Shown here in pieces: positions 15,437 to 47,658 of a DNA stretch of 64,000 nt (the stretch's first letter is position 1; every line of letters begins with the position of its first letter). The position numbers and the translations under genes are program-made. Origin of the DNA: an uncultured Rivularia sp. (GTDB taxonomy: Bacteria; Cyanobacteriota; Cyanobacteriia; Cyanobacteriales; Nostocaceae); contig OY762007.1 of assembly GCA_963665115.1 (NCBI GenBank), positions 1,664,001-1,728,000 of the forward strand. Reading direction: 5' to 3'. A model generated the notes under the pieces. That model was not told the origin of the DNA. It did no database searches and saw only the letters and a program-made list of their open reading frames with translations.

Positions 15437-15499
15437 CCAAAGTTTACCGAAAAAACCAACCAGTGAAAATAAATTTAATTAACTACTAAATGATTACAA

Positions 15500-24333: not shown

Positions 24334-24346
24334 AATATTTTATTTG

Positions 24347-24871: not shown

Positions 24872-24877
24872 AATTAA

Positions 24878-25729: not shown

Positions 25730-25772
25730 TTTAGTTGTTAGTTGTTAGTGGTTAGTTGTTATTTATTACTCA

Positions 25773-28614
<2,842 letters not shown>

Positions 28615-28754: not shown

Positions 28755-29747
28755 TTAACATTTAGTCAAATGAATCAAAACATCAGCTAATGCTTGTACC
28801 ATCGCACGAGTTGATAAATTTTCTCCTCGCTCTAATCGATGCACGCTACCAGTAAGCAGAGATGTGCTTTCTAACAATTCGCTTGTATTCTCTTGCCAAC
28901 CGTTGCTAAACAAAACTTCGTCTTTGACAGCATTTAGCTGACTGTGAATTTTGGCAATGACTTTTAATCCTAATGTTTGACAAAAATCTTCCCACTCTGC
29001 AAATTTACTCGTGTCTCCCGACAAAATAACTGCGTGGGTTGCTGGTTGCATAATTAGCTTGTTTTCGTCGGTAATTTTGCCACCAACGTCAATGATATTT
29101 ATTAATTGGTTCACACTCTTTACCCATTGTGCAGCTTCTATCGCAAATTTTGGGGTCACAGGTGCTTTATTTCTGCGTTTGCAATCCTTTGCTACTTGCT
29201 CGTTATTTTCGTAAGCTTCTTGATGCCAAGACCCTTCTCCATCAGGGCAAGCCGTGATTATATATGGATAAGGTGCCCCAAAATTACTGAAAATAGCTCT
29301 TTTTAAGCCATCCCTTAAGCATGATTTTCCCGATTGTGGAGGACCGCATAAAACGACTCTGATGGGAGAAAAACTTTCTTCTGGAAATTCTTGGGTTTCA
29401 ATCAAATCTCCTACTTGATATTCTGTGGAGCCGTGTACGGAGGTAACAATATAAACTTTGTGCCTGATAGCACCATCTGCTGTACTAATTTTACTACTCA
29501 GTTTGGGGTCGAGTACGGCGACTGCTTCGTATAAATGTACGAGTTTATGGGAAAGAATATAAGCAACGGGAACTGATTGCGGCCCATCAATTAAGATGCG
29601 CTTGCCTCCGGAAATCTCACCAGAATCAATCATTTGGTTGATTCGAGAGAGTGCGTCTTTAGCAATGCGATCGCCTTGTGCGGGAACGTTACGATTAAAA
29701 CCAACGTGCAATACGTCTCCTTCTAATTTAATTTGGTAGCTTTGCAT
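28755..29747 (-). CDS. csx3: Csx3 (Crn3 ring nuclease-like) fused to a P-loop NTPase
   Basis: N-terminal ILIDGP..LSH..AVLDPKL..VTSVH; C-terminal GPPQSGKS, ACPDGEGSW, IIDVGGK. Confidence 0.8.
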   Translation of the reverse strand: MQSYQIKLEGDVLHVGFNRNVPAQGDRIAKDALSRINQMIDSGEISGGKRILIDGPQSVPVAYILSHKLVHLYEAVAVLDPKLSSKISTADGAIRHKVYIVTSVHGSTEYQVGDLIETQEFPEESFSPIRVVLCGPPQSGKSCLRDGLKRAIFSNFGAPYPYIITACPDGEGSWHQEAYENNEQVAKDCKRRNKAPVTPKFAIEAAQWVKSVNQLINIIDVGGKITDENKLIMQPATHAVILSGDTSKFAEWEDFCQTLGLKVIAKIHSQLNAVKDEVLFSNGWQENTSELLESTSLLTGSVHRLERGENLSTRAMVQALADVLIHLTKC

Positions 29748-29789: not shown

Positions 29790-29807
29790 TGGAATAGGCG
29801 TATTCCA
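29790..29807. promoter_or_regulatory. Palindromic operator TGGAA-N8-TTCCA upstream of csx3/cmr
   Basis: TGGAATAGGCGTATTCCA, followed on the minus strand by TGtCATAGT (extended -10-like). Confidence 0.7.
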
Positions 29808-29956
29808 TATTTGTAGAAGGTAGCTTTGCTAAATCACAATGTGAAGTGATGATTTCACATTGCTGGAGACGTAGCAGTGCTACGTCTCTACAAGGGTTTT
29901 GTGTTTCATACAAAATGTAGGTGATTATAATTTATCTTTGATTTAATCTACATTCT

Positions 29957-31403
29957 TTACCAAACAATAAAATCCGAATTATCAAAATCTTGCTCTTCAA
30001 AATCTTGACTTTCAAAATCCGAATTTTGAACGACTTGCTCCGAACTATTCAACCCACAAAAATAACAATCATCCGTCTGTAAATATGTGGTATCAGTTTT
30101 ACGCCATTCGCTATTGGGAAACTCATAAATCCAATCAATACCAGAATCCACATTCATAAAACCGCTTACTATACCGTGAATCACTCCCACAGCGGTACTT
30201 GCACAAATACTATTCAACCAAAATACTGAGGGGGTCATTTACTCCTTCTAAATAACCCGCATTTTCAGCCATATGATTAATTTCTGATGGTGCAGACTCT
30301 AAAGCAGCGCGTTGTAAGTTGATGATGTTACCGCACATTAAACACCAATCACCACCCACAGGAGGAATTGTGATTCTACAGTACATTCGCGGTGTTCCAT
30401 CTGATTTCACGTCGATGTGAGTCCCCAAGCATACCAAAGGACGCATATACTTTAATGCAACTTCTTGAGCAGTTTTGCGAGAAAGATGATTATCAGTAGC
30501 AACTATAATCAAATCGCAATTAGCTATTTCTTGCGTGGCTGTTTCGGCTTCAATAGCAGTCGATATGGTTTTGACATGAGAACCACAAGCGTAAATTTTT
30601 TTAATCAAATGCTTGACATAATGGACTTTGTGCCAATTCTGCTCGACCATTTCTTGAGTTGCACCCGTCATCCGATTTAAGTTGACTTGCTCTAATTTAT
30701 CGGGGTCAACCAGCACCCAATTTTTGACACCCAGACGACCTAATAATTCCGCAAAAATAGAACCAATTCCACCACAACCGATTAATCCTACTTTCAATTG
30801 ATTCAAAGTTTTTTGATTGGTTTCCCCAAATGTTTTTTGACGAGCGAACATTAAATTAGGGTTGTCAAAAATATTTTCAGAATCAGAGATTTCAAATAAT
30901 GAATTACAAAAATCAACCTGCTGAAATTCTCTTCCCTTCCTATCCCATATCCGAAACTTACAATTATCTAAGCCTTCATCAAACACACCCGAAACCAAAC
31001 GGGGTTTTTCAGGGAAATGAGATGCAATAAACTTTGCATATTCTGATTCATAACGGTTATCAACATAAGAAAACTCAGGAATACCCACACCAGCATGAGT
31101 ATGAATATGGACTATATCCAAACCGGGGAATAGATGATTTTCTAACAGATAAGAATGGAAACGTTGAGTTAAAACCAAACCATCGGTAGATTGATGTTCG
31201 TAGCATTCAGAAGTTGGAACAACCCAAGTCTTGGGAATATATCTAACTTTGCGTTTTGAAACCTGATGACGCTGACAAAATAGAAAACCAATTACTTCTT
31301 CGTTGAACATCCGAGAAGAGAGCATCGATTTTTGAAAATCAGACCACATTTTTGGTGGTACATGAAGAGAAAATTTAGTATTCATGGTTAGTTGATGATC
31401 CAC
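29957..31403 (-). CDS. JAB/MPN peptidase - ThiF/E1 fusion (one +1 frameshift near 30232)
   Basis: EEVIGF..HIHTH..FSYVD (JAB); GCGGIGS, VDPD..NLNR, ATDN..SR, CLMC and CYFC (E1). Removing one C gives NDPSVFWLN. Confidence 0.88.
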
Positions 31404-31458
31404 ACCCGACCGGTGAAAGTTGTTAGTTGATAGTTGTTAGTTGATAGTTTAGATTTAT

Positions 31459-31527
31459 GGTGCGTGACGGTAATTTCAAATGATTTTGTTACAAGTGATA
31501 AGTTATCGTAACCGTCACACACCCTAC
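31459..31527. repeat. GTAGGGTG..ACCGTCACGCACC REP-like element (copies 45225-45292, 48140-48210, partial 11918-11932)
   Basis: Shared termini and internal GTGACGG/CCGTCAC inverted repeat; the three full copies abut heptamer arrays. Confidence 0.75.
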
Positions 31528-31569
31528 AAAAATAAATATCCTACTTCTTACTTATTACTTCTTACTTAA

Positions 31570-32055
31570 TTAATCGTCACTATTAATCGCATGACGTGCT
31601 GTTACAAACAATGTCGTGAGATTGTGACCGTTTTCCGCATTATTACTAGGTCGCCAAGAATTCAACCAAACATCGTGATTAAATCCTCCTCCCAATCCGA
31701 CACAATACCAATACCATCCTTGTTCGCTTAAAAATGGGGCACCGTAATAGCTTTGTCTGGTAAAATGATGGTCGCCTTCTCCTACAGTATTCCAAGGATA
31801 ATTTAGATAGCAGCCAATCGGAGGAAGTCGAGGGTAATCTGACGGTAATAGAAACAAAACATCAGTATTGGAAACCTTAAATTTTTGAGAAGATAAAGGC
31901 ATTCCCTTAATCAAAACAGCAGTATATCTAGTATCACCAACAGTCTTGCTACCAACGATTATATTTTTAGCAACTTTTTCTAATAGCTTAAGTTCTTCTA
32001 TAATTCGCGAACTAGGTTTAAATCCCGATTTATCTTTACTAATTGTAATTGCCAT
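31570..32055 (-). CDS. Prokaryotic E2/UBC-like protein
   Basis: VLFLLPSDYPRLPP (UBC-type YP..PP), WYWYC, W.P...NL.T motifs; lies between Ubl and E1. Confidence 0.8.
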   Translation of the reverse strand: MAITISKDKSGFKPSSRIIEELKLLEKVAKNIIVGSKTVGDTRYTAVLIKGMPLSSQKFKVSNTDVLFLLPSDYPRLPPIGCYLNYPWNTVGEGDHHFTRQSYYGAPFLSEQGWYWYCVGLGGGFNHDVWLNSWRPSNNAENGHNLTTLFVTARHAINSDD

Positions 32056-32094
32056 ATCTCACCTCATTACTTCTTACTTTTTACTTCTTACTTT

Positions 32095-32301
32095 TTACTT
32101 TTTACTTCCTTTCACAATCTTCGGTACAGTCCAAACCTTTGAACCTTCCTTCAATGCTTCATTACTTTTCAACGGACGAGTACCACCGAAACCTTCTTCC
32201 ATCACATCATCTTGACCAATTTCTGGTAGTTTTTTTCGTAATTCTTCAACAGTTGCACCTTTGGGTAAATCGACTAATTTACCGTTAACAATTGCTCTCA
32301 T
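32095..32301 (-). CDS. Ubiquitin-like beta-grasp (ThiS/MoaD-fold) protein
   Basis: 68 aa; IVNGK.V.LP.GATV.EL and L.EG.KV..VP..VKG with an SKK tail; AGGA SD upstream. Confidence 0.8.
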   Translation of the reverse strand: MRAIVNGKLVDLPKGATVEELRKKLPEIGQDDVMEEGFGGTRPLKSNEALKEGSKVWTVPKIVKGSKK

Positions 32302-32473
32302 TTAATTTCCTCGCTTTGTTCTAATTATTTGGTTAATGGTAATTTAAAATCTCCCTCAGACTATAAGTCTGGGGCTACAGAAACCAAGTCCACCTGCGTG
32401 GACTATTATTATTTGAAAGATATTTTCTGGTTCCCAGGTTCTACCTGGGAATTAGTGTTTGAAGGCTCTGCCT

Positions 32474-32821
32474 TCAGTCCGCAGAGAATGGTGCAATATA
32501 TGAGTATACTTGTTTTGGAATCTGGCTATTGTCATCTTTTTGTTGATTATTCATACCAGAAATAGACCATACAAAAAGTAACGCAATAATGCTGCCTATC
32601 TTAATAAATGATATTTGTTTTGATTGCTTTGATGTCAATTCTTCAAGAAAACCTATTCGCTGTTCGAGTTTTTGCAAATATTGTAAATTATCTTGACTGC
32701 TAATGTGAGTTAATTGAGATTGTAGATACTCACAACGTCGATTGATATACTCAATATTGTGCGTTATTTCATCAAATTGATTTAGTTTTTGATTGGTTAG
32801 CTTCCCGTTTACTGTTTCCAT
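32474..32821 (-). CDS. Coiled-coil protein with one transmembrane helix
   Basis: Heptad-rich N-terminus, IGSIIALLFVWSISG TM segment, GGAG SD. Confidence 0.6.
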   Translation of the reverse strand: METVNGKLTNQKLNQFDEITHNIEYINRRCEYLQSQLTHISSQDNLQYLQKLEQRIGFLEELTSKQSKQISFIKIGSIIALLFVWSISGMNNQQKDDNSQIPKQVYSYIAPFSAD

Positions 32822-32863
32822 AAATAACTCCCTTGATTTTTTATTTATTTCAACTATGTTTAC

Positions 32864-33439
32864 TCATGCATCAAAAATATTTGCATGACCAATTCGATGA
32901 AAATTCTCATTAGAATTATGTGGGTCAAATTCATCAAATACCTCAGTTAAATCCACCACGCTATTAGCTGAATTCTTTAACTCGCTTCCTAAAGATTGTT
33001 CGACTGAAGCAACCTCAACTCTTATTCCTCTTCTTCTTAATTTTTGTGCTAAATAAGCAAAATCCGAATCACCCGTCACCAAAACCACAATATCTGGTTT
33101 AATTTCTAAAGCTAATTCCATCGCGTCTATTGCCATCACTACATCAACATTATTTTCATAACCATCTCCTTTGGCTTTACCTTCTTTTGTAACAATTAAA
33201 AATCCATTACTCTTAGCCCAATAAATAAATTTTTCTTTGCTTTTTCGCTGCTCTTCAAATCTATCTTTAGCAGGGGGTAGACCAAAATAAATCACCATTT
33301 CGATTAGTTCTCTACCTTCTTTGGGGTCAGCTAAATAATCCCGCATTTTATGCCAGTTTATTCTACGATTAAAGCTTTGTGCTGCCATAAAAGCGTTATC
33401 ACCATCAGCTATAATCATGACTCGATGAAGATTTCTCAT
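32864..33439 (-). CDS. NYN (LabA/DUF88, PIN-like) domain RNase
   Basis: IADGDN, NVDVVMAIDA, LVTGDSDF, S.EL...A motifs. Confidence 0.9.
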   Translation of the reverse strand: MRNLHRVMIIADGDNAFMAAQSFNRRINWHKMRDYLADPKEGRELIEMVIYFGLPPAKDRFEEQRKSKEKFIYWAKSNGFLIVTKEGKAKGDGYENNVDVVMAIDAMELALEIKPDIVVLVTGDSDFAYLAQKLRRRGIRVEVASVEQSLGSELKNSANSVVDLTEVFDEFDPHNSNENFHRIGHANIFDA

Positions 33440-33497
33440 TCGATTTTTAACCTTGTTTTGGGTTTTTGTTTTCTTGATTACAATTTAAACCGATTGG

Positions 33498-33515
33498 TGG
33501 AATAGGCTCTTTCCT
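33498..33515. promoter_or_regulatory. Operator copy upstream of the NYN-Ubl operon
   Basis: TGGAATAGGCTCTTTCCT; TAAATT lies 10 nt downstream on the minus strand. Confidence 0.65.
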
Positions 33516-33560
33516 TTATTTTTTTCAATTACTAAATAAGTGGAGCAAGTGCAAATAGAA

Positions 33561-33726
33561 AACCTCACCCTCAATCCCTCTCCTTATTAAGGAGAGGGAA
33601 GCCGGAGCTAGGATAAGGGTCAAAAACGGGTCTAAAATTTCTGAAACCTATATGGACACTCAGATATCCCTCTCCTTGATAAGGAGAGGGAAAGATTTTT
33701 ACGTAGTAAAAAGCGAGGGTGAGGTT
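33561..33726. mobile_element. MITE-like repeat with 12 bp terminal inverted repeats (partial copy ~10881-10922)
   Basis: AACCTCACCCTC..GAGGGTGAGGTT ends and two internal CCCTCTCCTT..AAGGAGAGGG hairpins. Confidence 0.7.
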
Positions 33727-33747
33727 GAGCGGTTTCTTATCAATCAA

Positions 33748-33765
33748 TGGAAAACGTTATTTCCA
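33748..33765. promoter_or_regulatory. Operator copy upstream of the DUF4112 operon
   Basis: TGGAAAACGTTATTTCCA; TAAAGT lies 9 nt downstream on the plus strand. Confidence 0.65.
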
Positions 33766-33823
33766 CTAGCTGATTAAAGTAAATACATGAAATCAAGAAA
33801 GCACAATAAATTTACTACTAATT

Positions 33824-34276
33824 ATGGATATCAATAAATCCTTACCTGTGAAGATTCAAGCTCATGAAGCAAATTTAATTCAAACTAAAAATGAAATTCA
33901 GAAGTTTATCAAAATGTCTGAGGGTTTATTGTTTGACCAAGTTGGGCTGGATGCTCTTATTGGAGCGATTCCTGGAGTCGGGGGAATGTATACGGGAATA
34001 ATGGGTATTTGGCTACTATTACAATCCTACAAAGTACGAGCCGAAAACGAGGATAAATTAATGATTGTTGCTCTTACTTTTGTTGATGTAGTGGTAGGAA
34101 TAGTCCCTATTTTTGGCGACATTATCGATACATTTTTACGAGTTCATGCTTTGAATGGTAGTCGCTTGATTACACATATCGATAAACAACTTTCATTAAT
34201 TGAAAATACTAGAGAACAGTTAAATCAAGGTTTTAATCCCGATTTAAGTTCGTTGGAAAACCTATTGCTCCGATAA
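33824..34276 (+). CDS. DUF4112 membrane protein
   Basis: GLDALIGAIPGVG and D.VVG.VP.FGD..D motifs. Confidence 0.8.
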   Translation: MDINKSLPVKIQAHEANLIQTKNEIQKFIKMSEGLLFDQVGLDALIGAIPGVGGMYTGIMGIWLLLQSYKVRAENEDKLMIVALTFVDVVVGIVPIFGDIIDTFLRVHALNGSRLITHIDKQLSLIENTREQLNQGFNPDLSSLENLLLR

Positions 34277-34330
34277 TTCTGAACTTGAAAATAACGCTTG
34301 CTTTATCTAACTAAAAAGGAAAATAGTCAA

Positions 34331-34984
34331 ATGAATAAGTTAATTGCAGGTATCGCAGCATTAGGTTTATGTTTCGTTTCTCCAGGTATTGCGAATTCCC
34401 AGCAGATTACTAGATTTGAGCATCAAGACGATACATACTATCACCAAAACTTAAATTCAAAAGGTGTTGCACGCTATAAATATAAAATACCTGCGAATAC
34501 TTTTGGAGTTTTCACTCTCAAAAATCACAGCGGGAGGTCAGATTTTGATATTTCTGTGTATGATTCTAGCAATGGACAATTACTATCTGAAGCAGATGAA
34601 TTGGGAACACAAACAGAGTTAGTTATTACACCATTTTTTACCCAGAATAAAGATGTAATTATTAAAGTAGTCAACTATGGTTCCCAAACATCTCGATACA
34701 AACTTTATGCAAATCATGTAAATCCTGCGACTAAATTTTTGATTGCATTAGCTGGTTTTCCTTTCTGTAGTTCAGCACAAAATGTTGACGATAGAATATC
34801 TTCGAGAGCATTTACAACTATGTCCTCAATTATTCAAGGTAACAGTTTTGGAGGTGTAGCTAAAGATGTTTTAATTAATGAAGTAACTATGGAAATGAAG
34901 AAACAATTTGGTTACGGATGTACGGGTGAAGTTATGGTTAATTGGGGTGTTTCTATGTTTAAAGGTATTCTTCGGAATTATTAA
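34331..34984 (+). CDS. Secreted protein with a PPC-like beta-sandwich domain
   Basis: Signal-peptide-like MNKLIAGIAALGLCFVSPGIA; DFDISVYD motif. Confidence 0.6.
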   Translation: MNKLIAGIAALGLCFVSPGIANSQQITRFEHQDDTYYHQNLNSKGVARYKYKIPANTFGVFTLKNHSGRSDFDISVYDSSNGQLLSEADELGTQTELVITPFFTQNKDVIIKVVNYGSQTSRYKLYANHVNPATKFLIALAGFPFCSSAQNVDDRISSRAFTTMSSIIQGNSFGGVAKDVLINEVTMEMKKQFGYGCTGEVMVNWGVSMFKGILRNY

Positions 34985-35030
34985 TTATTTAAATTAATTA
35001 CAGATTGATTTTTATTCGATATTGATGTTA

Positions 35031-35064
35031 AAAGCTTACCAATTTAAACGGTAGGCTTTTTTTT
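35031..35064 (+). terminator. Intrinsic terminator
   Basis: AAAGCTTACC..GGTAGGCTTT followed by a T-run. Confidence 0.6.
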
Positions 35065-35156
35065 ATGAGAGCATCCTAAATATTTTAAAATATACAGTCA
35101 ACTCACTGCCACGTTTGTGCTTCCATATTTATACTTACTGCCATCAACTCCTTCCA

Positions 35157-35253
35157 CTAATACAGCTGCGCGGAATTCAAAAGTAAAAAGTCTTTTAGGA
35201 TAAGGATTTTAACTATTAGGAATGGTTGCCAAATTTCTGCCGTACTGTATTAG
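35157..35253. mobile_element. Small MITE-like element with 9 bp terminal inverted repeats
   Basis: CTAATACAG..CTGTATTAG; a related left end occurs at ~48096-48130. Confidence 0.55.
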
Positions 35254-35381
35254 GGATGCAACTTGTATTTTCTACACAACGTATTAATCAGGGTTTGAGA
35301 CAATTTTACTGCCATCAACTGCTTCCACCTTACTGTCATCTTCTCGGTAAAGTGACAATTTGTTTAGCTGTTCAGGGACTC

Positions 35382-38300
35382 GTTTCCAACTAATCCGAAT
35401 TAACCCAATCGGTGGGGAAGTAAATTCTTTCTTTAAGGCTGGATTAAAGGAGAGTTTCCAACTAATCCGAATTAACCCAATCGGTGGGGAGTTCTCCAAT
35501 AACATCTAACTGCACTGTATAGTACAGTTTCCAACTAATCCGAATTAACCCAATCGGTGGGGCATACCCAATTAACGGGAATATATTGCCTGAATAAAGT
35601 TTCCAACTAATCCGAATTAACCCAATCGGTGGGGAAACTGTCGCAAGAAATGCTGCTTTTGCTCTTATTGAAAAGTTTCCAACTAATCCGAATTAACCCA
35701 ATCGGTGGGGTTTTGATGGAGACATTGAAATCACTGAAGGATACGAGTGTTTCCAACTAATCCGAATTAACCCAATCGGTGGGGTGGCTAAGTTCAATTC
35801 TATTCGCAGCATCTTTTGTTTCCAACTAATCCGAATTAACCCAATCGGTGGGGTTTTAACATCTAACTAAAAAACAAATTTGCTCGGTTTCCAACTAATC
35901 CGAATTAACCCAATCGGTGGGGAACTTTTTTAACGACAAGAACAACGCTGTTAAGGTTTCCAACTAATCCGAATTAACCCAATCGGTGGGGTATCCCTGC
36001 AAATTTTGTGGGGTGACTACGGACAAAAGTTTCCAACTAATCCGAATTAACCCAATCGGTGGGGTCGTTTCTTAAAGAACGAAAATAATCAAAAGAGAAT
36101 AGTTTCCAACTAATCCGAATTAACCCAATCGGTGGGGATTTCTTAAAAAGAAATCACATACACGCCAATTTATGTTTCCAACTAATCCGAATTAACCCAA
36201 TCGGTGGGGAAGAGAATCATTGAAAAGTTTGAAAATAACGAAAGTTTCCAACTAATCCGAATTAACCCAATCGGTGGGGGAGAATTAATTCTTCCAGCGA
36301 CAGAAATGGAAATGGATCGTTTCCAACTAATCCGAATTAACCCAATCGGTGGGGTAAGAGACAAGAAAGATATAGCGGAAGAAATTAATAAAGTTTCCAA
36401 CTAATCCGAATTAACCCAATCGGTGGGGTGTTCCCAGCAGTTTCAAACCCTAGTCTCTCGTAAAAAGTTTCCAACTAATCCGAATTAACCCAATCGGTGG
36501 GGTAATTTCAATTTTTCTGAGAAGTTAGAATCTGTTAGTTCGTTTCCAACTAATCCGAATTAACCCAATCGGTGGGGGTCGTTCTTCTGTAGGAAGAGGT
36601 ATTCCAGAATATAAAGTTTCCAACTAATCCGAATTAACCCAATCGGTGGGGTCTTTTCAGAAGCCAATAGATGTGATGGAATTCGTAATGTTTCCAACTA
36701 ATCCGAATTAACCCAATCGGTGGGGTGGTGTTCACCGTATGTTTTTAGTAAATAAAGCTAATGTTTCCAACTAATCCGAATTAACCCAATCGGTGGGGTT
36801 TGTTAGAAAAAAGCAGCCACGTGGTTGCTTTAGAGTTTCCAACTAATCCGAATTAACCCAATCGGTGGGGAAATATAATAGCGGTAAAACAGTTCCGAAT
36901 TCTAATGTTTCCAACTAATCCGAATTAACCCAATCGGTGGGGAATATGGTGAAATTTCTTTTACAGAAATTAAAGATAGTTTCCAACTAATCCGAATTAA
37001 CCCAATCGGTGGGGAAAGACAAAAGAGGAAGTCTTAGACTTTCCACCTAACGGTTTCCAACTAATCCGAATTAACCCAATCGGTGGGGGGCTGTTTGAAA
37101 AACAGCATAAGTCGAGGTCAGTTAGAGTTTCCAACTAATCCGAATTAACCCAATCGGTGGGGGGAGTCAGCCACTGAGGCGACTCCGGCAACTATAACGT
37201 TTCCAACTAATCCGAATTAACCCAATCGGTGGGGGCAGCCAGAATCAAAAAGGCAGCAAGTCCGGAGGATAGTTTCCAACTAATCCGAATTAACCCAATC
37301 GGTGGGGTTTTTTTGTTTATCAGTTGCATAGTCTGTATTCATCAGTTTCCAACTAATCCGAATTAACCCAATCGGTGGGGTACAACATTTTGGCAGTATT
37401 TACTACTGCGGCTTTTAGTTTCCAACTAATCCGAATTAACCCAATCGGTGGGGCGAAAGGATAACACGAGTAATATTGTATTATAGGGAAAGTTTCCAAC
37501 TAATCCGAATTAACCCAATCGGTGGGGTAACATTTTCGCTTTTTCCTAACTAGCTAACTTGTTTCCAACTAATCCGAATTAACCCAATCGGTGGGGATCT
37601 GGCGCTCCTGCAAGGACAGGATTAGTCAACATGTTTCCAACTAATCCGAATTAACCCAATCGGTGGGGGCTTTGGTTTTTGCGTCTTTGTTTCTTTCTAT
37701 TTTCGTTTCCAACTAATCCGAATTAACCCAATCGGTGGGGCAGTCAAAATGCGAATTGGAATGCGAACTGGAAAGTTTCCAACTAATCCGAATTAACCCA
37801 ATCGGTGGGAAAAAAATTTGCTAAGTGAATAACGAAAAAAACGAAAACAGTTTCCAACTAATCCGAATTAACCCAATCGGTGGGGGATTGTTTGTTTCAA
37901 TTTTACGAAGGCAAGTACAAGTAAGTTTCCAACTAATCCGAATTAACCCAATCGGTGGGGCACTTATCTTTAAGGATTTGCTAAAATGTCTAACGTTTCC
38001 AACTAATCCGAATTAACCCAATCGGTGGGGAAAAATTTGACGAAGCATTAGAATTAGCAAGAAAGTTTCCAACTAATCCGAATTAACCCAATCGGTGGGG
38101 AAAAAGATTCTGAAAAAGAGGCTCTTGCCTCTTTGAAGTTTCCAACTAATCCGAATTAACCCAATCGGTGGGGCTCACATTTTTCTGTCTTCATTTGATT
38201 AGCTAACGTTTCCAACTAATCCGAATTAACCCAATCGGTGGGGCGGTTTGTATTGATGGAAATTGTGCAGGATTTTAAAGTTTCCAACTAATCCGAATTA

Positions 38301-41300
38301 ACCCAATCGGTGGGGCAGAAGGGGAAAACATTTTCTTCTCTGAAAAAGAGAAAAAGTTTCCAACTAATCCGAATTAACCCAATCGGTGGGGGATCAAAAA
38401 GATTCTGAAAAAGAGGCTCTTGCCTCTTTGAGTTTCCAACTAATCCGAATTAACCCAATCGGTGGGGTTTTTCAATATATTTGTTAAATGCTGGCGGATA
38501 TTTAGGTTTCCAACTAATCCGAATTAACCCAATCGGTGGGGAATTCGTGGAATTGAAGTTTTAAAAAGCTACCGTTTCGTTTCCAACTAATCCGAATTAA
38601 CCCAATCGGTGGGGGTTCCCCGTTGTATTTACAGGAGGATTCACCAAGTTTCCAACTAATCCGAATTAACCCAATCGGTGGGGACAGTATTGAAAAAATC
38701 TCTAAGTCAGATATAAAAGTTTCCAACTAATCCGAATTAACCCAATCGGTGGGGGATAAATGTTTTCAAGATAGGAGGGTATTTCCAACGTTTCCAACTA
38801 ATCCGAATTAACCCAATCGGTGGGGCTGAAGAAAAAAAAGAAGAATGCGAACCTAAGGCACAGTTTCCAACTAATCCGAATTAACCCAATCGGTGGGGCA
38901 ATATTCAAAACATGGGTTTTGGTATTGGACAAAGAAAAAGTTTCCAACTAATCCGAATTAACCCAATCGGTGGGGAAACTGAAGAAGAAGTTGAAACTGA
39001 AGCTGAAGAAGAGTTTCCAACTAATCCGAATTAACCCAATCGGTGGGGCAAGGGGTCGTGATGTTGGCGTGCCTCACACACCTCAAGTTTCCAACTAATC
39101 CGAATTAACCCAATCGGTGGGGATTTCATCTATTTGCTTACTTAAAAGCAATGCATAGTTTCCAACTAATCCGAATTAACCCAATCGGTGGGGATTGGGC
39201 ATGAGAGATAACTGAGAGAACCACCAAGGTTTCCAACTAATCCGAATTAACCCAATCGGTGGGGAAACTTTATCTTTATTTTGGGGAATTCTGCTTTAAA
39301 GTTTCCAACTAATCCGAATTAACCCAATCGGTGGGGTGCAAAACCAGGTCAGCGAGGCTATGAACCTCCCAGTTTCCAACTAATCCGAATTAACCCAATC
39401 GGTGGGGAAAACTAAAAGGGAAGCATATAGTTGGCAGTAAAGTTTCCAACTAATCCGAATTAACCCAATCGGTGGGGAATACGACAATCGTAGGTTTGCA
39501 AACTATGCAGTTTCCAACTAATCCGAATTAACCCAATCGGTGGGGGTGAATTAGAAGCAATGGCTTCCGGTTCATCTGATTTGGTTTCCAACTAATCCGA
39601 ATTAACCCAATCGGTGGGGTCTAATAGTGGAAATGTAAGCATTAGCGGCAATAATAGTTTCCAACTAATCCGAATTAACCCAATCGGTGGGGTAGTGGAA
39701 ACGGAATGAATGTAACGCAAATTAACGTTTCCAACTAATCCGAATTAACCCAATCGGTGGGGCGACGGCTATAGCAGTAAAGTTTCATGGGGTACTTGTG
39801 TTTCCAACTAATCCGAATTAACCCAATCGGTGGGGAAGCACTGAGAACCAGTTCAAAAAGTTTGATACTAATGTTTCCAACTAATCCGAATTAACCCAAT
39901 CGGTGGGGTCCAACAAGATTACATTAATTAACCATGTAACAAAAGTTTCCAACTAATCCGAATTAACCCAATCGGTGGGGTAGATGAAAATAATCTAGCA
40001 CATCTTGCTATAATAATGTTTCCAACTAATCCGAATTAACCCAATCGGTGGGGATGGCACCTTAAGCCTGGTAAATCTGAATATTGGGTGTTTCCAACTA
40101 ATCCGAATTAACCCAATCGGTGGGGTGTTGAACTGGGGAGGTGTGTTGCTGCCAGTAAGGTTTCCAACTAATCCGAATTAACCCAATCGGTGGGGTAGAG
40201 ACGATGTAGTTTATTTTTTAAAGGATTGTTTCCAACTAATCCGAATTAACCCAATCGGTGGGGTTTCCTTTTGGGTAGGTTCTGAAAAGATAACATTCCA
40301 GGTTTCCAACTAATCCGAATTAACCCAATCGGTGGGGATGGGTAAATTAGGACATAGGGAAACCTGTGTTCAAGGTTTCCAACTAATCCGAATTAACCCA
40401 ATCGGTGGGGTGTAAGTAACATTAACTCCTATTAGTTTATTAATGTTTCCAACTAATCCGAATTAACCCAATCGGTGGGGACATGGTTAAAGAAGCTGAC
40501 GGTCGCTGCATGAACGTTTCCAACTAATCCGAATTAACCCAATCGGTGGGGTTGCTCATCATTACGTGAAAAAGTAACGGTGTGATAAGGTTTCCAACTA
40601 ATCCGAATTAACCCAATCGGTGGGGAAAGAGCAAGAGTTACAAGTCATGGTTTATAAGATAAAGTTTCCAACTAATCCGAATTAACCCAATCGGTGGGGG
40701 ATTGAAAGATATAAAGCAAAAAATTGAGTTAGTTGAAAGTTTCCAACTAATCCGAATTAACCCAATCGGTGGGGAAACGGAGCGAAAGTTCCAAAAGTCT
40801 TAGTTACTGGAGTTTCCAACTAATCCGAATTAACCCAATCGGTGGGGGTTCAAAACAGAATTGCGCTTTTTTCTTTGTTTTCGTTTCCAACTAATCCGAA
40901 TTAACCCAATCGGTGGGGAAACAAATTTATCTGAGAGCTACAAACGCATTTGTTTCCAACTAATCCGAATTAACCCAATCGGTGGGGTGGTTTAATTAGT
41001 CTAGCAGTAGCATCCGCACGTAATAGTGTTTCCAACTAATCCGAATTAACCCAATCGGTGGGGAAACAGCCCAAGAGACCTGAAAGACGACCAATAAACG
41101 TTTCCAACTAATCCGAATTAACCCAATCGGTGGGGTTGATGAAAATAAGATGTATAACTGCCAACGGAGTAGTTTCCAACTAATCCGAATTAACCCAATC
41201 GGTGGGGTTTTTATTGCTTCTTTCGTAATTTTCAATCATCAGTTCCGTTTCCAACTAATCCGAATTAACCCAATCGGTGGGGTTATTTTACAGAAAGACG

Positions 41301-41858
41301 GAGTAATCATAATGATTAGTTTCCAACTAATCCGAATTAACCCAATCGGTGGGGGAGAAAACTCTATAATGCTTGCAAAAGCATAATAGGTTTCCAACTA
41401 ATCCGAATTAACCCAATCGGTGGGGAGAGATTATATTTTCAATGGAAAGAAGGTTGGAGAGTTTCCAACTAATCCGAATTAACCCAATCGGTGGGGTTTT
41501 TTATAATAATAAAAACAACTATGGTTGATAAGTTTCCAACTAATCCGAATTAACCCAATCGGTGGGGGGTTCACGCTTCTTCTGCTCGTGCAGAAGAGGG
41601 AAAGTTTCCAACTAATCCGAATTAACCCAATCGGTGGGGCGTCTCTACGCAAATTGGTGTGTAAAATTCTTTAAGTTTCCAACTAATCCGAATTAACCCA
41701 ATCGGTGGGGGTCGCTTCTGTTTTGACTATTGCTCAGGTGAATATTGAAGTTTCCAACTAATCCGAATTAACCCAATCGGTGGGGTGCTAAGTTTTTCTA
41801 TGAAAGCTTAGAAAGCATTAAAGTTTCCAACTAATCCGAATTAACCCAATCGGTGGGG
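35382..41858 (-). CRISPR. CRISPR array, 90 repeats / 89 spacers by manual count; 36 nt repeat CCCCACCGATTGGGTTAATTCGGATTAGTTGGAAAC
   Basis: Near-identical repeats with ~32-41 nt spacers. The GAAAC 3' end and the leader next to cas2 give minus-strand orientation. Confidence 0.99.
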
Positions 41859-42077
41859 AGTTCGTTCAGCAGCCCCTACCCAGTAAGAGTTTCAGCCGCC
41901 AAATCGACACACTCCTGAAAAACAGTATGTATCTCGCGCAAAACTGAACAAAACACAAGCCTCAAACCCTTGCCCTGCAAGCCATCGACACACTCCAACG
42001 AAAGAATAGGCATTTGAGCGATTTGGCGGAGTGTGTCGATTTTCATGTTACCTTTTTCTCCGTAGTGGGGCTAAAAC
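41859..42077 (-). promoter_or_regulatory. CRISPR leader with three ATCGACACACTCC motifs
   Basis: Motif at 41903-41915, 41984-41996 and inverted at 42028-42040. Confidence 0.75.
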
Positions 42078-42353
42078 CTATATGACATAATAGTTTGGTG
42101 GCTCTTGAGGATGTTCGCTACCAATAGTTAACACTCTGGAAACAGCATCTTCAGAAATCCAATAAAATCGCACGTTATCCTCAGATGGCTTGACAATTTT
42201 TTTCGATTTCTCAAAAAGTTGTCGCATTTCATCTAAATTTAAAAAGCATTCAAATACAGAAAATTGTACTCTTTGCCCGTAACCCTCTAAAAAGTTAGAT
42301 AATTTAGTGCGTCTTTTATCATTAGGAATATCATATACAACAACCACTAACAT
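42078..42353 (-). CDS. cas2: Cas2
   Basis: VVVYDIPNDKRR..L..YG.RVQFSVFEC..D.VRFY. Confidence 0.97.
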   Translation of the reverse strand: MLVVVVYDIPNDKRRTKLSNFLEGYGQRVQFSVFECFLNLDEMRQLFEKSKKIVKPSEDNVRFYWISEDAVSRVLTIGSEHPQEPPNYYVI

Positions 42354-42400
42354 CTTCAATACTAAGAATTAATTTGTTACTTAAGTATAAGATGCTTTAC

Positions 42401-42449
42401 AAGTAATAAGTAAGAAGTAAAAAGTAAAAAGTAAGAAGTAAAAAGTAAT
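42401..42449 (+). repeat. Heptamer tandem array (AAGTAAN)x7
   Basis: Read directly; inverted relative to 42892-43036. Confidence 0.9.
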
Positions 42450-42456
42450 AAATTGG

Positions 42457-42828
42457 TTATTTTTGTTTAAGTTTATTAATCGAAGATACTAATACCTTAA
42501 TAATTTCTTCATTTTCTTGTATCATATTGTTGAATTTGGATTTCAGCACTAATTCTGATTTAATCATTATTTTTATCCAATAAAGAGTCTCATTAGCTTC
42601 TTTCAAGGCTATAGAATACTTGTTGATAAAATCTGCGTTTGATTGAGCATACTTAGCTTCCGAACAGTTTGCTCCTATTGATGTTCCACTTCTTAAAAAT
42701 TGCTTAGATAATACCTTACCCGCATCGTCAAAAGGTCTTTTATTTAGTTCGCAATAAGCTTTGATAACTCTGATAGCAAAATTTTCTGTTCTTTCTTGAA
42801 TACTAATATTACCCTTATGATTAACCAT
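42457..42828 (-). CDS. Four helix bundle protein (23S rRNA IVP / Avd-like family)
   Basis: QFLRSGTSIGAN..EA..AQS..DF..K..IALKEA.ET.YW signature. Confidence 0.92.
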   Translation of the reverse strand: MVNHKGNISIQERTENFAIRVIKAYCELNKRPFDDAGKVLSKQFLRSGTSIGANCSEAKYAQSNADFINKYSIALKEANETLYWIKIMIKSELVLKSKFNNMIQENEEIIKVLVSSINKLKQK

Positions 42829-42891
42829 GAATCAAAAATAATGCGACAACTTGTTATTAATCGAAAAACAATAAATAACGTATCAAGTATA

Positions 42892-43036
42892 ACTTCTTAC
42901 TTCTTACTTCTTACTTCTTACTCATTACTTCTTACTTCTTACTTCTTACTTCTTACTTCTTACTTCTTACTCATTACTTCTTACTTCTTACTTCTTACTT
43001 CTTACTCATTACTTCTTACTTCTTACTTCTTACTTC
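42892..43036 (+). repeat. Heptamer tandem array (ACTTCTT)x~20
   Basis: Read directly; begins at the cas1 stop codon. Confidence 0.92.
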
Positions 43037-44159
43037 AGTCTGCTCTTAGGTAAGATTCATAGATAATATCAGATAATAAACAGCGCTTATATCTCCTAAC
43101 TTGTAATTGAATTGCATGTCGATATGTTACTTGAGAAATTAAATCTGGATGAGAAATTTCTTCATTCATGCGATTTTCAAACTGTTTCAGAAAAACTCTT
43201 CTAGCAGTTTGACTTAAATAAACTCCTCCTGTGGTTGCGACGACATCAAAGTCTTTCGGTTTAAATTCACTATTATTAATTACTTTTAAAACCAAACTAT
43301 CAACAATAGGAGAACGAAATTCTTCCATTAAATCAAAAGCTAAATATGTTTTTTGCTTATCACCATAATGAAAATGACCGATATATGGTGAAAGTCCTTC
43401 GGTAATAATAAAGCTGAGTACATTATTAAATAAAAGTGTATAGCCAAAACTCAATAATGAATTTATCTCATCGGTGGGAGGCTGCCGAAATCTCTGAGAA
43501 AAACTAAATTTAGGATTAGTAATTAAATTCCCAAAGGCTGGAAAATATCTAGCAGCAGCAATTCCTTCATAACCGCGCAAAGTATCTAAGTTATCAACAT
43601 AATTCAAAGCATCAATATCTTGATTAATTCCATAGATAGCTTCTTCTACTTTTCCTATTTTGCGTCTGCGATTAAATCGCATCAATAATTGTTTGGAATT
43701 CAATAATTTACCTAAAACAACCGCTCTTGATACGCTAAATCGAAATAAATCATCATTACGTCTTTCTACTTGAACTAATTGATTATCCAGATGAATAGAT
43801 TTTTCGCTCCATAAGTGACCATGATATGTACCAGTTTGACTGAGAAATACCACGGGAATTTGTTCTTTTAAACAAGCTTGAATTACTGGAGTTGATAATT
43901 GAATATTACCGAATACTATAATTTGCTCTACTTCCCGAATCGGAACTTCAAGCTTCGGTTTTTCTGAGACATGAATAATAAACCGCTGATAATCTTTATA
44001 GATATTTGTTCCTTGTTCAATTAAGTATATAGCCGCCATTTCTTGATTCCAAATATTTTTTTGAAAAGGACTATCATCCTCTGCTGTTTGTGGAGGTTTT
44101 TCCGTGATTGTTTCGGCAAAATATGGTTTGTGTAGATAACGTATATTTTCATAACCCAA
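43035..44159 (-). CDS. cas1: Cas1 (frame open back to the A9 tract at 44243)
   Basis: IYLIEQG, LRGYEGIAAARYF, INSLLSFGY, G.FH, DLMEEFR. Confidence 0.97.
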   Translation of the reverse strand: MGYENIRYLHKPYFAETITEKPPQTAEDDSPFQKNIWNQEMAAIYLIEQGTNIYKDYQRFIIHVSEKPKLEVPIREVEQIIVFGNIQLSTPVIQACLKEQIPVVFLSQTGTYHGHLWSEKSIHLDNQLVQVERRNDDLFRFSVSRAVVLGKLLNSKQLLMRFNRRRKIGKVEEAIYGINQDIDALNYVDNLDTLRGYEGIAAARYFPAFGNLITNPKFSFSQRFRQPPTDEINSLLSFGYTLLFNNVLSFIITEGLSPYIGHFHYGDKQKTYLAFDLMEEFRSPIVDSLVLKVINNSEFKPKDFDVVATTGGVYLSQTARRVFLKQFENRMNEEISHPDLISQVTYRHAIQLQVRRYKRCLLSDIIYESYLRAD

Positions 44160-44203
44160 ACCAGCAAAACCGTTAGTTATTGAATTAGAAGCTTCAGCTA
44201 ATT

Positions 44204-45166
44204 CTAAACTGCTTTCTTCTTTCGATATTGGTTGCGATAGACTTTTTTTTTACTAGTTTTTCTAGTTCTCGTTTTCTCGCGATTGTTTTCAATAGCTGAC
44301 CTTAATTTAGCTTTATTTGTATCTACAGGGAAAATTGCATCTTCTAAAAAACCATGACCTAAAAAACGAAAACCGCGTTCAAAGCTAGTAATTTGGGTTT
44401 TCTCGGTATTTATTTCTAACCCCATCGAATCCAATAAATCAATCACTTGCGATTTTGCGATCGCGATTCGTTCTTGACTAGTTGATAAAACCAAAAAATC
44501 ATCAGCATAACGCACGATTTCTAAATCACTAGCGCTAATAATTCCATCAAATTCATGGAGATAAATATTTGCCAAAATTGGAGAAATAACCGCACCTTGA
44601 GGAATACCTTTTTGAGGTAAGATTAGCCCTTCTCTAGTTTCCACACCAACCGAAATCCAAGCTTTAATTAAACATAAAATACCTGGGTGGTCAATATGTA
44701 ACCTTACCTGTTGTAACAAGCGATGATGGTCAATATTATCAAAAAACTTGACGATATCAGCATCCAAAACCCAGACATAACCCATGTCTCGCCAATCGGC
44801 TATTTTCTCTACCGCATTGATATAAGATAAATTAGGACGATAAGCAAAACTTACAGGTGAAAATTTCTCTTCCATTAACGGACTAATTACATTTAATAGA
44901 GCTTGCTGAACAATTCTGTCTCGAATAGTAGGAATTTTTAACTCTCTTTGGGAGCCATTTCTTTTGGGAATAATTACCTGCTTGCAAGGAGAAGGTTGAT
45001 AGCTACCATCAGCAACAGAATTCATTAACTGATAAATGTTAACCGTTTGATTGCTAGCAAAACTACTAATAGTTTCACCATCAACACCCGCACAACCGCG
45101 TTTATCAGCAACCTTTTCCCAAGCACGCTGAAAATTATTAATATCGATAAATAGACTGGAAATCAT
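44204..45166 (-). CDS. CRISPR-associated reverse transcriptase (group II intron-like)
   Basis: IPK..G..R.L.IP.IRDRIVQ, DADIVKFFD, GIPQGAVISP, RYADD, FLG; directly upstream of cas1. Confidence 0.95.
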   Translation of the reverse strand: MISSLFIDINNFQRAWEKVADKRGCAGVDGETISSFASNQTVNIYQLMNSVADGSYQPSPCKQVIIPKRNGSQRELKIPTIRDRIVQQALLNVISPLMEEKFSPVSFAYRPNLSYINAVEKIADWRDMGYVWVLDADIVKFFDNIDHHRLLQQVRLHIDHPGILCLIKAWISVGVETREGLILPQKGIPQGAVISPILANIYLHEFDGIISASDLEIVRYADDFLVLSTSQERIAIAKSQVIDLLDSMGLEINTEKTQITSFERGFRFLGHGFLEDAIFPVDTNKAKLRSAIENNREKTRTRKTSKKKVYRNQYRKKKAV

Positions 45167-45384
45167 GATAAGTAAGAAGTAAGAAGTAAAAAGTAAGAAG
45201 TCAAAAGTAAGAAGTAATAAACTTGTAGGGTGCTGTACTTACGAGATAATTGTCGATTTTGACAATGAATTGTCGTCTTACCGTCACGCACCAATCAGTA
45301 TTTAGAAGTCAAAAGTAAGAGGTAAGAAGTAATTAATAATTGATAATTGTTCACTGCTTACTAATAACTGATAACTGTTCACTG

Positions 45385-45975
45385 TTAACTGTTAACTGAA
45401 AACTGCTCGACAATTCGCTTTAATTCTTGAACCATAAAAGAATCAGCATCAGCTTTCAAAAATAATTGCAATAAAGTCTGGTAGTACCATAATGTTCCTT
45501 CTTTACCACCTTTAAATTTTCCCCAAGTAGATTCACCATTGTTAGATAAATCTCTCAAAATACTGCGAGCGTTATGCAATTTGTCAGCTAGCGATACCTT
45601 ACGAATAGAAGCAGAAGCACCACGCAAATTATCAATATATTGCTGTTTGCGCTGCAACCAAGGAGGTTTTGGTATAGTATTCGTATCGCTGCAACCATCA
45701 ACTATTTCCGCAACTTTTAGTCCAAACATATCAAAAATTACTTCACGAGTTGCTTGTCCTCCTTGGTCTTCTACTGCATCATGTAATAATGCAGCGATAG
45801 CTTCATCTTCATCACCACCATCTTCTAACACCAATGCAGTAACGCTTAAAAGATGACTAATATACGGAATATTGCTTCCCTTCCTTATTTGTTCGCGATG
45901 TAATCTTGAAGCATAAACTAAAGCTTGTTCAAAACGATTTGTTAAAAAATATTTTTGTGTTGTGTTTAAATTCAT
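45385..45975 (-). CDS. HD-domain protein, RelA/SpoT hydrolase (Mesh1/SAH)-like
   Basis: H..Q.RK...PYISH, AALLHDAVED, ADKLHN. Confidence 0.85.
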   Translation of the reverse strand: MNLNTTQKYFLTNRFEQALVYASRLHREQIRKGSNIPYISHLLSVTALVLEDGGDEDEAIAALLHDAVEDQGGQATREVIFDMFGLKVAEIVDGCSDTNTIPKPPWLQRKQQYIDNLRGASASIRKVSLADKLHNARSILRDLSNNGESTWGKFKGGKEGTLWYYQTLLQLFLKADADSFMVQELKRIVEQFSVNS

Positions 45976-46062
45976 ATTATTTAAAGGTCAAAGGTCAAAG
46001 GTTAAAGGTTAAAGGTAAATTAGAAAAGGTAACAAGGAGAAAAATAACTCCTAACTGTTCTC

Positions 46063-47592
46063 TTATATATAAAGCTTATAAGTAGCTTCCATTTCTCTTC
46101 TCATTCTGTCTCTTAAATCCAAAGGAAAAATCACTTCAACATTTGGACACCAAGCTCGTAAACGCATGACAATATTATTGTCGTCAACTCGATAATCAAT
46201 TTTGCAATAAATATCGTATTCGGAACGAGATTGTACTGTAGAAATCAATTGTTTCTGTTCTAAAGATGCTTTTGGTGTGTAAGATTTAATCAGTTTTTCT
46301 ACCTGTTTACGGGTAATTTTATGAAACATATCATCTCTTTCTGTTCCTTCGATATAATTACCGTAAAAATATTGGTCAAATCTTAGTATTAATAATGCTT
46401 GGGGTTTATGAATATCAAATCCCCAAACTGCTGACATTTTATCTTTAATTTCATCTGGATTTGGTGGATATTTACCGTAACATTTATCTAAAAAGTGTTT
46501 GGGTATATCAAGGTTATCTGCATTAGAATCTAATTTATTTAATTCATCTAAATTAATAATTTTATCAAGTCGATAGTCATACCAATCTATTTTACTCCAA
46601 GGATTCTTCCTGTTTGACTGAGGAATTTGACCATAAGCAAATAAATAAGGTGCGCGTTTATAGTAATAAATACAGACTGGATAAACAATACAATCAATTG
46701 TTTCTTGATATAGTTTAGCGCTACGATAGTTTAATTTAACTAATGGTACTTTGTCCCTTTTCCAAAGACTTTTTATTTTCTGCTGCAATAGCTCTATATG
46801 TTCGTTTAAACTTGAATGAACTATATATTCTGCATGAATAAAAAATCTTTGTATACCGTTAATAGGTTGTGAAAGAGAATTATTAAAAGCTGATAATTCA
46901 TGATTTGTGAATTGTTCTGAGGTAATTTCTTTGTTCTTCAGAGAACTTAAGAAAACTTCCGGGAATCGATTTACTTTTGTATATATAACTTTGCCACTAT
47001 ATTTTTTGATATTTAACCAACCTAAATTTACTAAAGATTGAAAATCGTGGTCTTTTAAATTACGAGCAGTAACTGCAAACAAACGTCCTTCTGGTAACGA
47101 TTTGGAAAATTTTTTATTAACAGTTAACGATTTTACTTCTGATTGCATGTGTTGAGATTTATTTTTAGCTATTCCACCTTGGAGTAGATTATTTAGTTCA
47201 TCACCTTCAAAAGAATAATATTTTTTTAGCGATTGACACCAGCGGTTTTCATCAATTCTTAAACTTGATTCAAACAACCATTGCTTTAGTTTAATAGCAC
47301 ATCGACATTCTTCTTTGATAAAATCTTGGTTTAACTCATTTAGGCTATGTAAGCTTGGTATACAATCACGTTTATGATATTTCTTAGCATCAATAAAAAA
47401 TAAATCGCGCCATTCTAAAAAACTAAACTCTTCTTTCAAGTCTAATTTTACTTCATCACTTTCATCCCCATAAATAGAACGTAAGATAACCCATAACCTT
47501 ACAGCTTTTGCTAAATTTTGCTTCAGAGAACCTGCTGTTAATATCTTGAGAACTTCAACACTAGGAGGATAGTTAAAAACTTCTCTCTTCAT
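46063..47592 (-). CDS. CRISPR-associated WYL-domain regulator (TIGR03985-like)
   Basis: VYPVCIYY..RAPYLFAYG, YRLDKI, RLRAW.PNVEV..P..LR. Confidence 0.85.
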   Translation of the reverse strand: MKREVFNYPPSVEVLKILTAGSLKQNLAKAVRLWVILRSIYGDESDEVKLDLKEEFSFLEWRDLFFIDAKKYHKRDCIPSLHSLNELNQDFIKEECRCAIKLKQWLFESSLRIDENRWCQSLKKYYSFEGDELNNLLQGGIAKNKSQHMQSEVKSLTVNKKFSKSLPEGRLFAVTARNLKDHDFQSLVNLGWLNIKKYSGKVIYTKVNRFPEVFLSSLKNKEITSEQFTNHELSAFNNSLSQPINGIQRFFIHAEYIVHSSLNEHIELLQQKIKSLWKRDKVPLVKLNYRSAKLYQETIDCIVYPVCIYYYKRAPYLFAYGQIPQSNRKNPWSKIDWYDYRLDKIINLDELNKLDSNADNLDIPKHFLDKCYGKYPPNPDEIKDKMSAVWGFDIHKPQALLILRFDQYFYGNYIEGTERDDMFHKITRKQVEKLIKSYTPKASLEQKQLISTVQSRSEYDIYCKIDYRVDDNNIVMRLRAWCPNVEVIFPLDLRDRMRREMEATYKLYI

Positions 47593-47640
47593 TCTGCTTT
47601 GATTTGTACTTTTGGTAGATGTCTCTACTTTAACAGCAGG

Positions 47641-47658
47641 TGGAATACGCTATTTCCA
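47641..47658. promoter_or_regulatory. Operator copy in the divergent promoter of the WYL and Zn-finger genes
   Basis: TGGAATACGCTATTTCCA, with TGtTAAAGT (minus) and TAAAAT (plus) -10-like boxes on either side. Confidence 0.7.

Follow-up and report, generated by a model that had tools for sequence, protein, structure and literature searches.

A conserved GGAA-N8-TTCC palindrome as the probable binding site of a TIGR03985 WYL protein in a cyanobacterial CRISPR island

The WYL activator DriD of Caulobacter crescentus binds sites that overlap the -35 position of promoters without a -35 hexamer and keep a constant spacing to the -10 (PMC13004042). CapW sites overlap the -10 (PMC9122588) and the E. 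fergusonii BrxR site lies downstream of it (PMC9122601); the orientation of the WCX domain differs between the CapW and DriD classes (PMC11662680). Sll7078, encoded on plasmid pSYSA of Synechocystis 6803, has been named a potential regulator (PMC7283877). HTH-WYL and Csx3-AAA clusters are counted among the type III accessories, with single accessory deletions described as having no interference defect (PMC6546367), and the introduction of bioRxiv 2023.12.07.570523 reports a deletion effect for sll7009 only. Our literature search, with subscription journals largely outside it, found no published site, regulon or regulatory direction for the TIGR03985/Sll7078 family. Here we describe a palindromic site in a 64,000-nt stretch of DNA from an uncultured Rivularia sp. 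(contig OY762007.1, positions 1,664,001 to 1,728,000; hereafter the window), where it precedes the operons of a CRISPR island that encodes a 509-amino acid (aa) TIGR03985 protein with winged helix-turn-helix (wHTH), WYL and WCX domains. Comparison of related loci indicates that this protein very probably binds the palindrome and, given that it does, probably activates from it. We put at roughly 0.6 the probability that the palindrome is the WYL binding site and that the island operons are activated in the manner of DriD when the protein binds single-stranded nucleic acid.

The site is 18 bases long, with the consensus (T/A/C)GGAA-N8-TTCC(A/T/G). A first-pass annotation of the window had reported four copies of the palindrome, and all are present at the positions it gave (8 strand matches, compared to a shuffle mean of 0.54, with 0 of 100 shuffles reaching 8). 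All four are intergenic as it had stated, 42–58 nt 5' of the ATG of csx3-AAA, NYN, DUF4112 and the WYL gene. It had also placed each site 8–10 nt before a -10-like hexamer; the hexamers are there, at spacings of 8 or 9 nt and never 10. We scored the sites, none of which is assigned a strand, with a weight matrix built from 39 distinct sites of other genomes, the window's own clade excluded. The highest-scoring one, at 47641..47658 (19.2 bits, genome rank 5), is common to two divergent predicted promoters, with TAAAGT at 47632-47627 (offset 8 nt) facing the WYL operon and TTAAAT at 47668-47673 (offset 9 nt) facing a 118-aa open reading frame (ORF) at 47743, a second gene that the annotation had omitted. 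The site at 33748..33765 (17.9 bits, rank 7) precedes the DUF4112 gene, with a -10 of TAAAGT at 33775-33780 (offset 9 nt). The site at 33498..33515 (17.9 bits, rank 8) precedes the NYN-Ubl-E2-JAB/E1 operon, where the -10, TTAAAT at 33488-33483, is weak (offset 9 nt). The fourth, at 29790..29807 (17.1 bits, rank 16), lies 5' of the csx3-AAA/cas10/cmr operon, with a TG-extended CATAGT at 29780-29775 (offset 9 nt). A fifth match at 15601 that the annotation had left out (9.0 bits, rank 542) falls inside a DUF499 ORF, within coding sequence and without a -10 at offset 8–9, and we took it for a chance or codon effect. Just 5' of the site at 29790, window positions 29838-29861 hold a longer second inverted repeat with a GAA-N8-TTC core; it adjoins a dispersed repeat and scores below 8 bits.

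The 8–9 nt distance from site to -10 was fixed across related loci. In WYL promoters (n = 38), TAnnnT stood at offset 8 in 25 and at offset 9 in 5, and it was found at 8–9 on the divergent side of 21 of 45 WYL sites. With all loci combined, 110 of 194 gene-facing sides carried TAnnnT at 8–9, compared to 21 of 156 gene-less sides and 6 of 52 sides of sites inside ORFs; one cas10 cluster had it in 12 of 12. In the NYN cluster no more than 5 of 29 matched the strict -10 form, since its promoters carry T(T/G)TAAT at offset 9, a weak -10 that is conserved and is without the customary A. At the one mapped start, an alternative start of Synechocystis slr7080 at pSYSA 75014 (PMC4195498, supplement), TATAGT spans -12 to -7, and a degenerate copy of the site spans -38 to -21. 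The palindrome occupies the place of a -35 hexamer and cannot resemble TTGACA, so we deduce that no -35 hexamer is possible there, and promoter listings gave no -35/-10 pair at these places. The window thus shares with DriD a palindrome over the -35 position, a fixed -10 distance, the lack of a consensus -35 (with one mapped start only) and a divergent promoter beside the regulator's own gene. The distance between site and -10 is also 8 nt for DriD, as counted in two promoter sequences from the Methods of PMC13004042. DriD differs in its site (ATACGAC-N7-GTCGTAT), its DNA-damage targets and its lack of self-regulation, compared to GGAA-N8-TTCC in front of CRISPR and accessory genes of one island.

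BrxR and CapW resemble the window protein in being wHTH-WYL-WCX proteins of defence islands with a palindrome at their own promoter. They are proteins of ~290 aa, however, and their sites overlap either the -10 or a canonical -35, or else lie past the -10, whereas the site here ends 8–9 nt upstream of the -10 of promoters without a -35. DdaA, a WYL activator of the Moraxellaceae, likewise has its palindrome in cas promoters and raises CRISPR immunity after DNA damage, but it serves as a genome-wide SOS substitute with a site (CGWCA-N5-TGWCG) ~50 bp upstream of the start (PMC12392091), in contrast to the island-confined regulon described here. Sll7078 (Shah cluster 36 HTH-WYL) is of the same family as the window protein; its gene is divergent from csx3-AAA (slr7080), and an HD gene comes next.

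We scored all 4-mer dyads with gaps of 0–20 in the 150 nt 5' of 86 distinct homologues of the WYL gene (25–90% identity), after leaving out 33 of 119 WYL matches as duplicates or as short or cut ORFs. GGAA-N8-TTCC was the top dyad and occurred 5' of 63 of the 86, compared to 0–1 for spacers of 5–7 and 9–11 and 1 in the downstream control; without the window clade (19 genes) it was found 5' of 45 of 67. The conservation at orthologous promoters that the first-pass annotation had proposed looking for is borne out for most of the family. The spacer sequence is free to vary, its 8-nt length is rigid, and pairing at its inner positions is confined to 13, 5 and 13 of the 39 sites; a freely varying, non-pairing spacer is as expected for a protein-binding site. 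Site variants also tracked recognition-helix clades, CGGAA..TTCCG being present at 9 of 11 genes with the helix AQVRKSLQ.

The dyad was counted in turn at 75 hand-picked cmr4 loci, 43 from TIGR03985-positive genomes and 32 from negative ones (L109 with a weak WYL-like match). N8 occurred 27 times in the positive set, where other spacers gave 3–14, and 5 times in the negative set, where they gave 2–10; at WYL-centred loci (n = 45) the corresponding figures were 43 and 3–13. Directly 5' of cas10, a site was present at 14 of the 40 loci of WYL-positive genomes compared to 1 of the 26 of WYL-negative ones (Fisher P 0.003, overstated by kinship), once loci with too little upstream sequence (3 of 43 positive, 6 of 32 negative) were left out, and the lone WYL-negative locus with a site comes from a genome that is 79% complete. 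On annotated plasmids the site also stands 5' of type I operons, cas3, reverse transcriptase and Card1-like CARF genes; our regulon table under-samples the more distant WYL homologues. On one Nostoc plasmid (L053:2486-12418), sites precede a second NYN family, a bacterial PH-domain gene and two unknown genes, which are candidate accessory genes.

A genome-wide motif scan against background, also proposed in the first-pass annotation, gave no overall enrichment. The perfect palindrome has 16 copies in the 8.69-Mb genome versus 16.8 expected (7–25 for other spacers), 3 of the 16 in the island; since the copies match expectation, there is no host-wide motif. The four island sites nonetheless hold ranks 5, 7, 8 and 16, and their local density (4 sites in 17.9 kb versus 0.074 expected) has a post hoc P of ~1e-6. 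Among 161 genome sites of at least 12 bits, 53 are intergenic, and a -10 at offset 8–9 together with a downstream gene leaves 6 site-directions, the top 5 of which are those of this island, one being the 118-aa ORF divergent from the WYL gene. A global regulon was rejected, as there is no genome enrichment and the genome's two other cas1 loci are absent from the six promoter-like matches. A 12.9-bit match inside cas2 at 42137-42154 was likewise put down to chance or a codon effect, as it lies in coding sequence without a -10 at 8–9. A match inside cas2, ahead of the array leader, is seen again in L084:7518, L035:14925 and L044:15137, probably through a codon effect, and the gap between the CRISPR array and the cas2-like gene (41858-42078) holds no site of at least 8 bits. 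Footprinting, the absence of enrichment at WYL-negative cmr loci and the local-only regulon together strongly support the earlier proposal that the sites form the regulon of the 509-aa protein, which would be their binder.

The WYL gene (46063..47592, minus strand; E 7e-74) encodes a protein that passes the curated cut-off of TIGR03985 (248.5 bits versus 60) and matches the PADLOC HTH-WYL model at E 3e-111. A protein search of 301 genomes of the order found homologues in 105, and 108 of the 301 scored above the cut-off of the hidden Markov model; as in annotated homologous loci, the gene lies inside a cyanobacterial CRISPR-cas cluster. Y289, R313 and R341 are shared by all 39 homologues, and 36 of the 39 keep S291; these residues look like a pocket, and their motif order suggests that they may correspond to the ligand residues of DriD and CapW. 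The motif RWHVR of the BrxR/CapW WYL domain is absent from the window protein and from the consensus of alignment A1, and a WYL profile searched against PDB sequences returned nothing below E 0.04, chance matches only. An AlphaFold model (predicted local distance difference test score 83.6, predicted template modelling score 0.54) has a predicted wHTH-linker-WYL-WCX fold in which the arrangement of WYL and WCX is DriD-like. Foldseek with this model placed DriD best (9e-9), ahead of PafBC (5e-7), CapW (8e-6) and BrxR (2e-5). VIA-align aligned it with DriD at Z 11.4 over 190 residues spanning WYL and WCX (root-mean-square deviation 3.9) and with CapW at Z 7.1–7.7 over 88–99 residues, mostly of the WYL domain, so that DriD is the best structural match to the predicted model and BrxR/CapW a weaker one. 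Unlike DriD, to which identity is 11–16%, the window protein carries an insertion of ~130 aa in its winged helix, with a conserved CxC, kept in 36 of 39 homologues. The N-terminal 212 residues, which comprise this winged helix with its large insertion, are confidently folded in the model. Foldseek found no match for them at E ≤0.001, and a wide search returned generic winged helices only (Z 4.3–5.4). The insertion (residues ~42-170), with its CxC, resembles no known structure in these searches and may serve to bind metal or RNA polymerase.

The palindrome implies a homodimer. In the mechanism that we propose, a WYL dimer would set one recognition helix on each GGAA half-site. Single-stranded DNA from damage or phage replication would enter the WYL pocket, and the dimer at -38 to -21 would then recruit RNA polymerase to promoters that have a -10 alone. 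Four sites would in this way drive five units, namely WYL-HD-RT-cas1-cas2 (RT, reverse transcriptase), the 118-aa ORF, DUF4112, NYN-Ubl-E2-JAB/E1 and csx3-cas10-cmr-CARF.

The same protein might instead bind the site and repress, in the manner of BrxR and CapW, blocking RNA polymerase at the -35 region until released by single-stranded DNA. This was the model implied in the first-pass annotation, and we consider it unlikely: promoter geometry and predicted fold favour a DriD-like activator. A repressor has no need of the 1-nt spacing window, which is seen even at one-way promoters, and would find no -35 to block in the promoter listings; the predicted WYL-WCX arrangement fits DriD, not CapW/BrxR; and transcripts of slr7080 are present in 9 of 10 conditions. 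Several observations nonetheless weigh against activation. The promoter would be autoregulated and is often divergent, as 43 of 50 sites face a -10 toward the WYL gene, and autoregulation is typical of repressors and foreign to DriD. Acinetobacter BrxR covers a canonical -35, from -51 to -27 (PMC9122589), and TG-extended -10s could function without a -35. The Synechocystis start at 75014 is an alternative one whose site scores only 0.8 bits, no site was found at the Synechocystis cas10 start or promoter, and whole-chain TM-scores of the predicted model reached only ~0.3 in Foldseek. The Kopf 2014 table has no sll7078 transcript unit, the unrelated Synechocystis WYL protein Sll7009 represses CRISPR1, and PMC6789036 labels Sll7078 a repressor, citing Hein 2013. 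Overall we consider activation more likely than repression.

Other observations count against binding by the WYL protein. Only 5 of 15 held-out homologues (a set that omits one locus without an ORF) score at least 10 bits; 8 of the 15 belong to the TVHR-helix clade, which has only a core GAA-N8-TTC with relaxed flanks, in 7 of 13 and no better than the top background dyads. Thus, the motif is firm for most of the TIGR03985 family and uncertain for the TVHR clade. In five TVHR loci (L209, L217, L219, L228 and L231) the WYL frame begins within a few bases of the site and leaves no room for a -10 there; in this clade the site may both overlie the WYL start and activate the gene on the divergent side. 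Furthermore, cas10 has no site in 26 of 40 loci from WYL-positive genomes, the match of helix and site involves one clade and so amounts to one event, and all counts overstate independence because the genomes are related. A host-wide transcription factor, or another island protein, might instead bind the site, with the WYL gene merely one of its targets. RpaB controls cyanobacterial cas promoters (bioRxiv 2023.12.07.570523), and sites persist in G297, which lacks TIGR03985, and in G102. We regard such a factor as improbable, as 5 of 6 promoter-like matches of a genome without enrichment lie in the island, cmr loci of WYL-negative genomes are unenriched, insertion sequences have cut up the G297 locus, a relic in which csx3 and cas10 are truncated, and the G102 genome is the 79%-complete one. 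The palindrome would be least of all expected to be an RNA hairpin, a DNA cruciform or a chance by-product of dispersed repeats or of the CRISPR repeat end (GGAAAC), which contains one half-site. Its outer pair does co-vary (T-A 22, C-G 7, A-T 3 of 39). The hairpin model was rejected on the failure of the inner positions to pair; the rigid spacer length also speaks against it, and at the mapped start the site lies upstream and is hence untranscribed.

The NYN operon encodes a ubiquitin-like (Ubl) module on the minus strand. It begins with an NYN-domain nuclease (32864..33439; E 4e-29), followed by a 115-aa ORF of no family (32474..32821), a 68-aa ThiS-like Ubl protein with a weak match (32095..32301; E 4e-4) whose C-terminus is Gly plus a 3-residue tail, a Prok-E2_E protein (31570..32055; E 6e-6, above cut-off) and a BubCD-like JAB-E1 fusion in two frames (29957..31403). 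The fusion resembles type I Bub, its closest solved relative being Citrobacter BubCD (E 4e-16 over residues 36-335), and Ubl, E2 and NYN are present beside a type III CRISPR system. Unlike type I Bub, which fuses the two as BubAB, the window and annotated loci encode Ubl and E2 separately; the scanned island ORFs gave no match to DUF6527 (BubE) or CorA, the rest of the genome being unsearched for DUF6527. The break in JAB-E1 near 30230 is an extra base in a short run, present in the X1 contigs and absent from X2 and X3. Because one of three runs carries the extra base, one population may have a JAB-E1 gene that is really broken, with the Ubl pathway polymorphic between intact and broken.

Of 301 genomes, 22 have the E2; the WYL gene is present in 19 of these, and the three without it comprise two broken modules without a site and the G297 relic. 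The site stood 5' of NYN at no less than 10 bits in 21 of 23 loci and at no less than 12 bits in 15 of 23, 3 of 26 loci having too little upstream sequence to be counted, and most Ubl-module loci adjoin cas genes. The first-pass annotation had taken the Ubl module for a functional part of the CRISPR system. Only shared regulation and recurrent linkage agree with this; the comparison of loci supports regulon membership by co-regulation, which does not by itself make the module a biochemical partner of Cas. A similar Ubl module was listed as CRISPR-linked in 2023, and CapW/BrxR-like genes are reported to accompany 8% of Bub operons. In the G297 locus (L082, G297:C1:2905400-2925399), which holds insertion sequences, truncated csx3 and cas10 and no WYL gene, a transposase replaces the NYN promoter and four sites survive elsewhere, two of them in front of genes for an M48 peptidase and for an unknown protein of 206 aa.

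A WYL regulator with a palindrome of its own is a known kind of system; what is new is a newly mapped, island-specific site that spans CRISPR and Bub-like genes. Tentatively, TIGR03985 proteins, which about one in three sampled genomes of the order encode, could be CRISPR-dedicated activators that sense single-stranded DNA. One 18-bp site might then co-induce type III and type I effectors, RT-Cas1, Csx3, CARF proteins and the Bub-like module, the systems would be inducible rather than constitutive, and the Ubl pathway would be a co-induced arm of type III immunity. If the activator reading is true, the repressor label passed on in the literature for the family is overturned. The suggestion that Sll7078 is a regulator is a decade old, and with the motif it can be put to a direct test in Synechocystis 6803, a model strain. 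A site 8–9 nt before a -10 also serves as a sequence tag for candidate genes of the immune programme, which so far include the Bub-like module, Card1-like CARF nucleases, the M48 peptidase and several unknown proteins.

The island as a whole is a cyanobacterial type III-B variant (csx3-AAA, cas10, cmr3-6 and CARF7-RelE) with RT-cas1-cas2 and a 90-repeat array. In the effector operon, all on the minus strand, Csx3-AAA comes first (28755..29747; E 1e-113), followed by the core genes cas10, cmr3, cmr4, cmr5 and cmr6 (22615..28575) and by a CARF7-RelE effector 3' of cmr6 (21402..22535). Reading-frame breaks in cas10 and cmr3 look like assembly errors because short-read contigs are without the extra base, in 3 of 3 covering runs for cas10 and in 2 runs and part of a third for cmr3. 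Directly 3' of the WYL gene and on the same minus strand lie an HD_4 hydrolase gene (45385..45975), the reverse transcriptase of the adaptation module (44204..45166), which is probably co-transcribed with WYL, cas1 (43035..44159) and a cas2-like gene named by sequence and by its position in annotated loci (42078..42359). The CRISPR array, with 90 exact repeat copies, occupies 35382..41858, with no strand assigned. On the plus strand, the DUF4112 gene (33824..34276) is followed by a 228-aa ORF without a Pfam family (34298..34984), and the 118-aa Cys-rich ORF (47743..48099), for which no family could be named, is a predicted regulon member; in three other Ubl loci such an ORF is found 5' of NYN.

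Adjoining the island, window positions 8473-18751 hold a cluster of DUF499 ATPase, DUF7680, methyltransferase-like and helicase-like genes, several of which seem frameshifted, with no convincing site. A membrane CARF8 effector gene at 19674-20432 faces the cmr operon without a site; sites do accompany related genes in L149, L161 and L173. In L031:2594-11527, WYL-HD-RT-cas1 occurs twice, head-to-head on one contig, as an inverted duplication or a misassembly. The HD_4 (RelA/SpoT-hydrolase-like) gene follows TIGR03985 in many loci, Synechocystis included.

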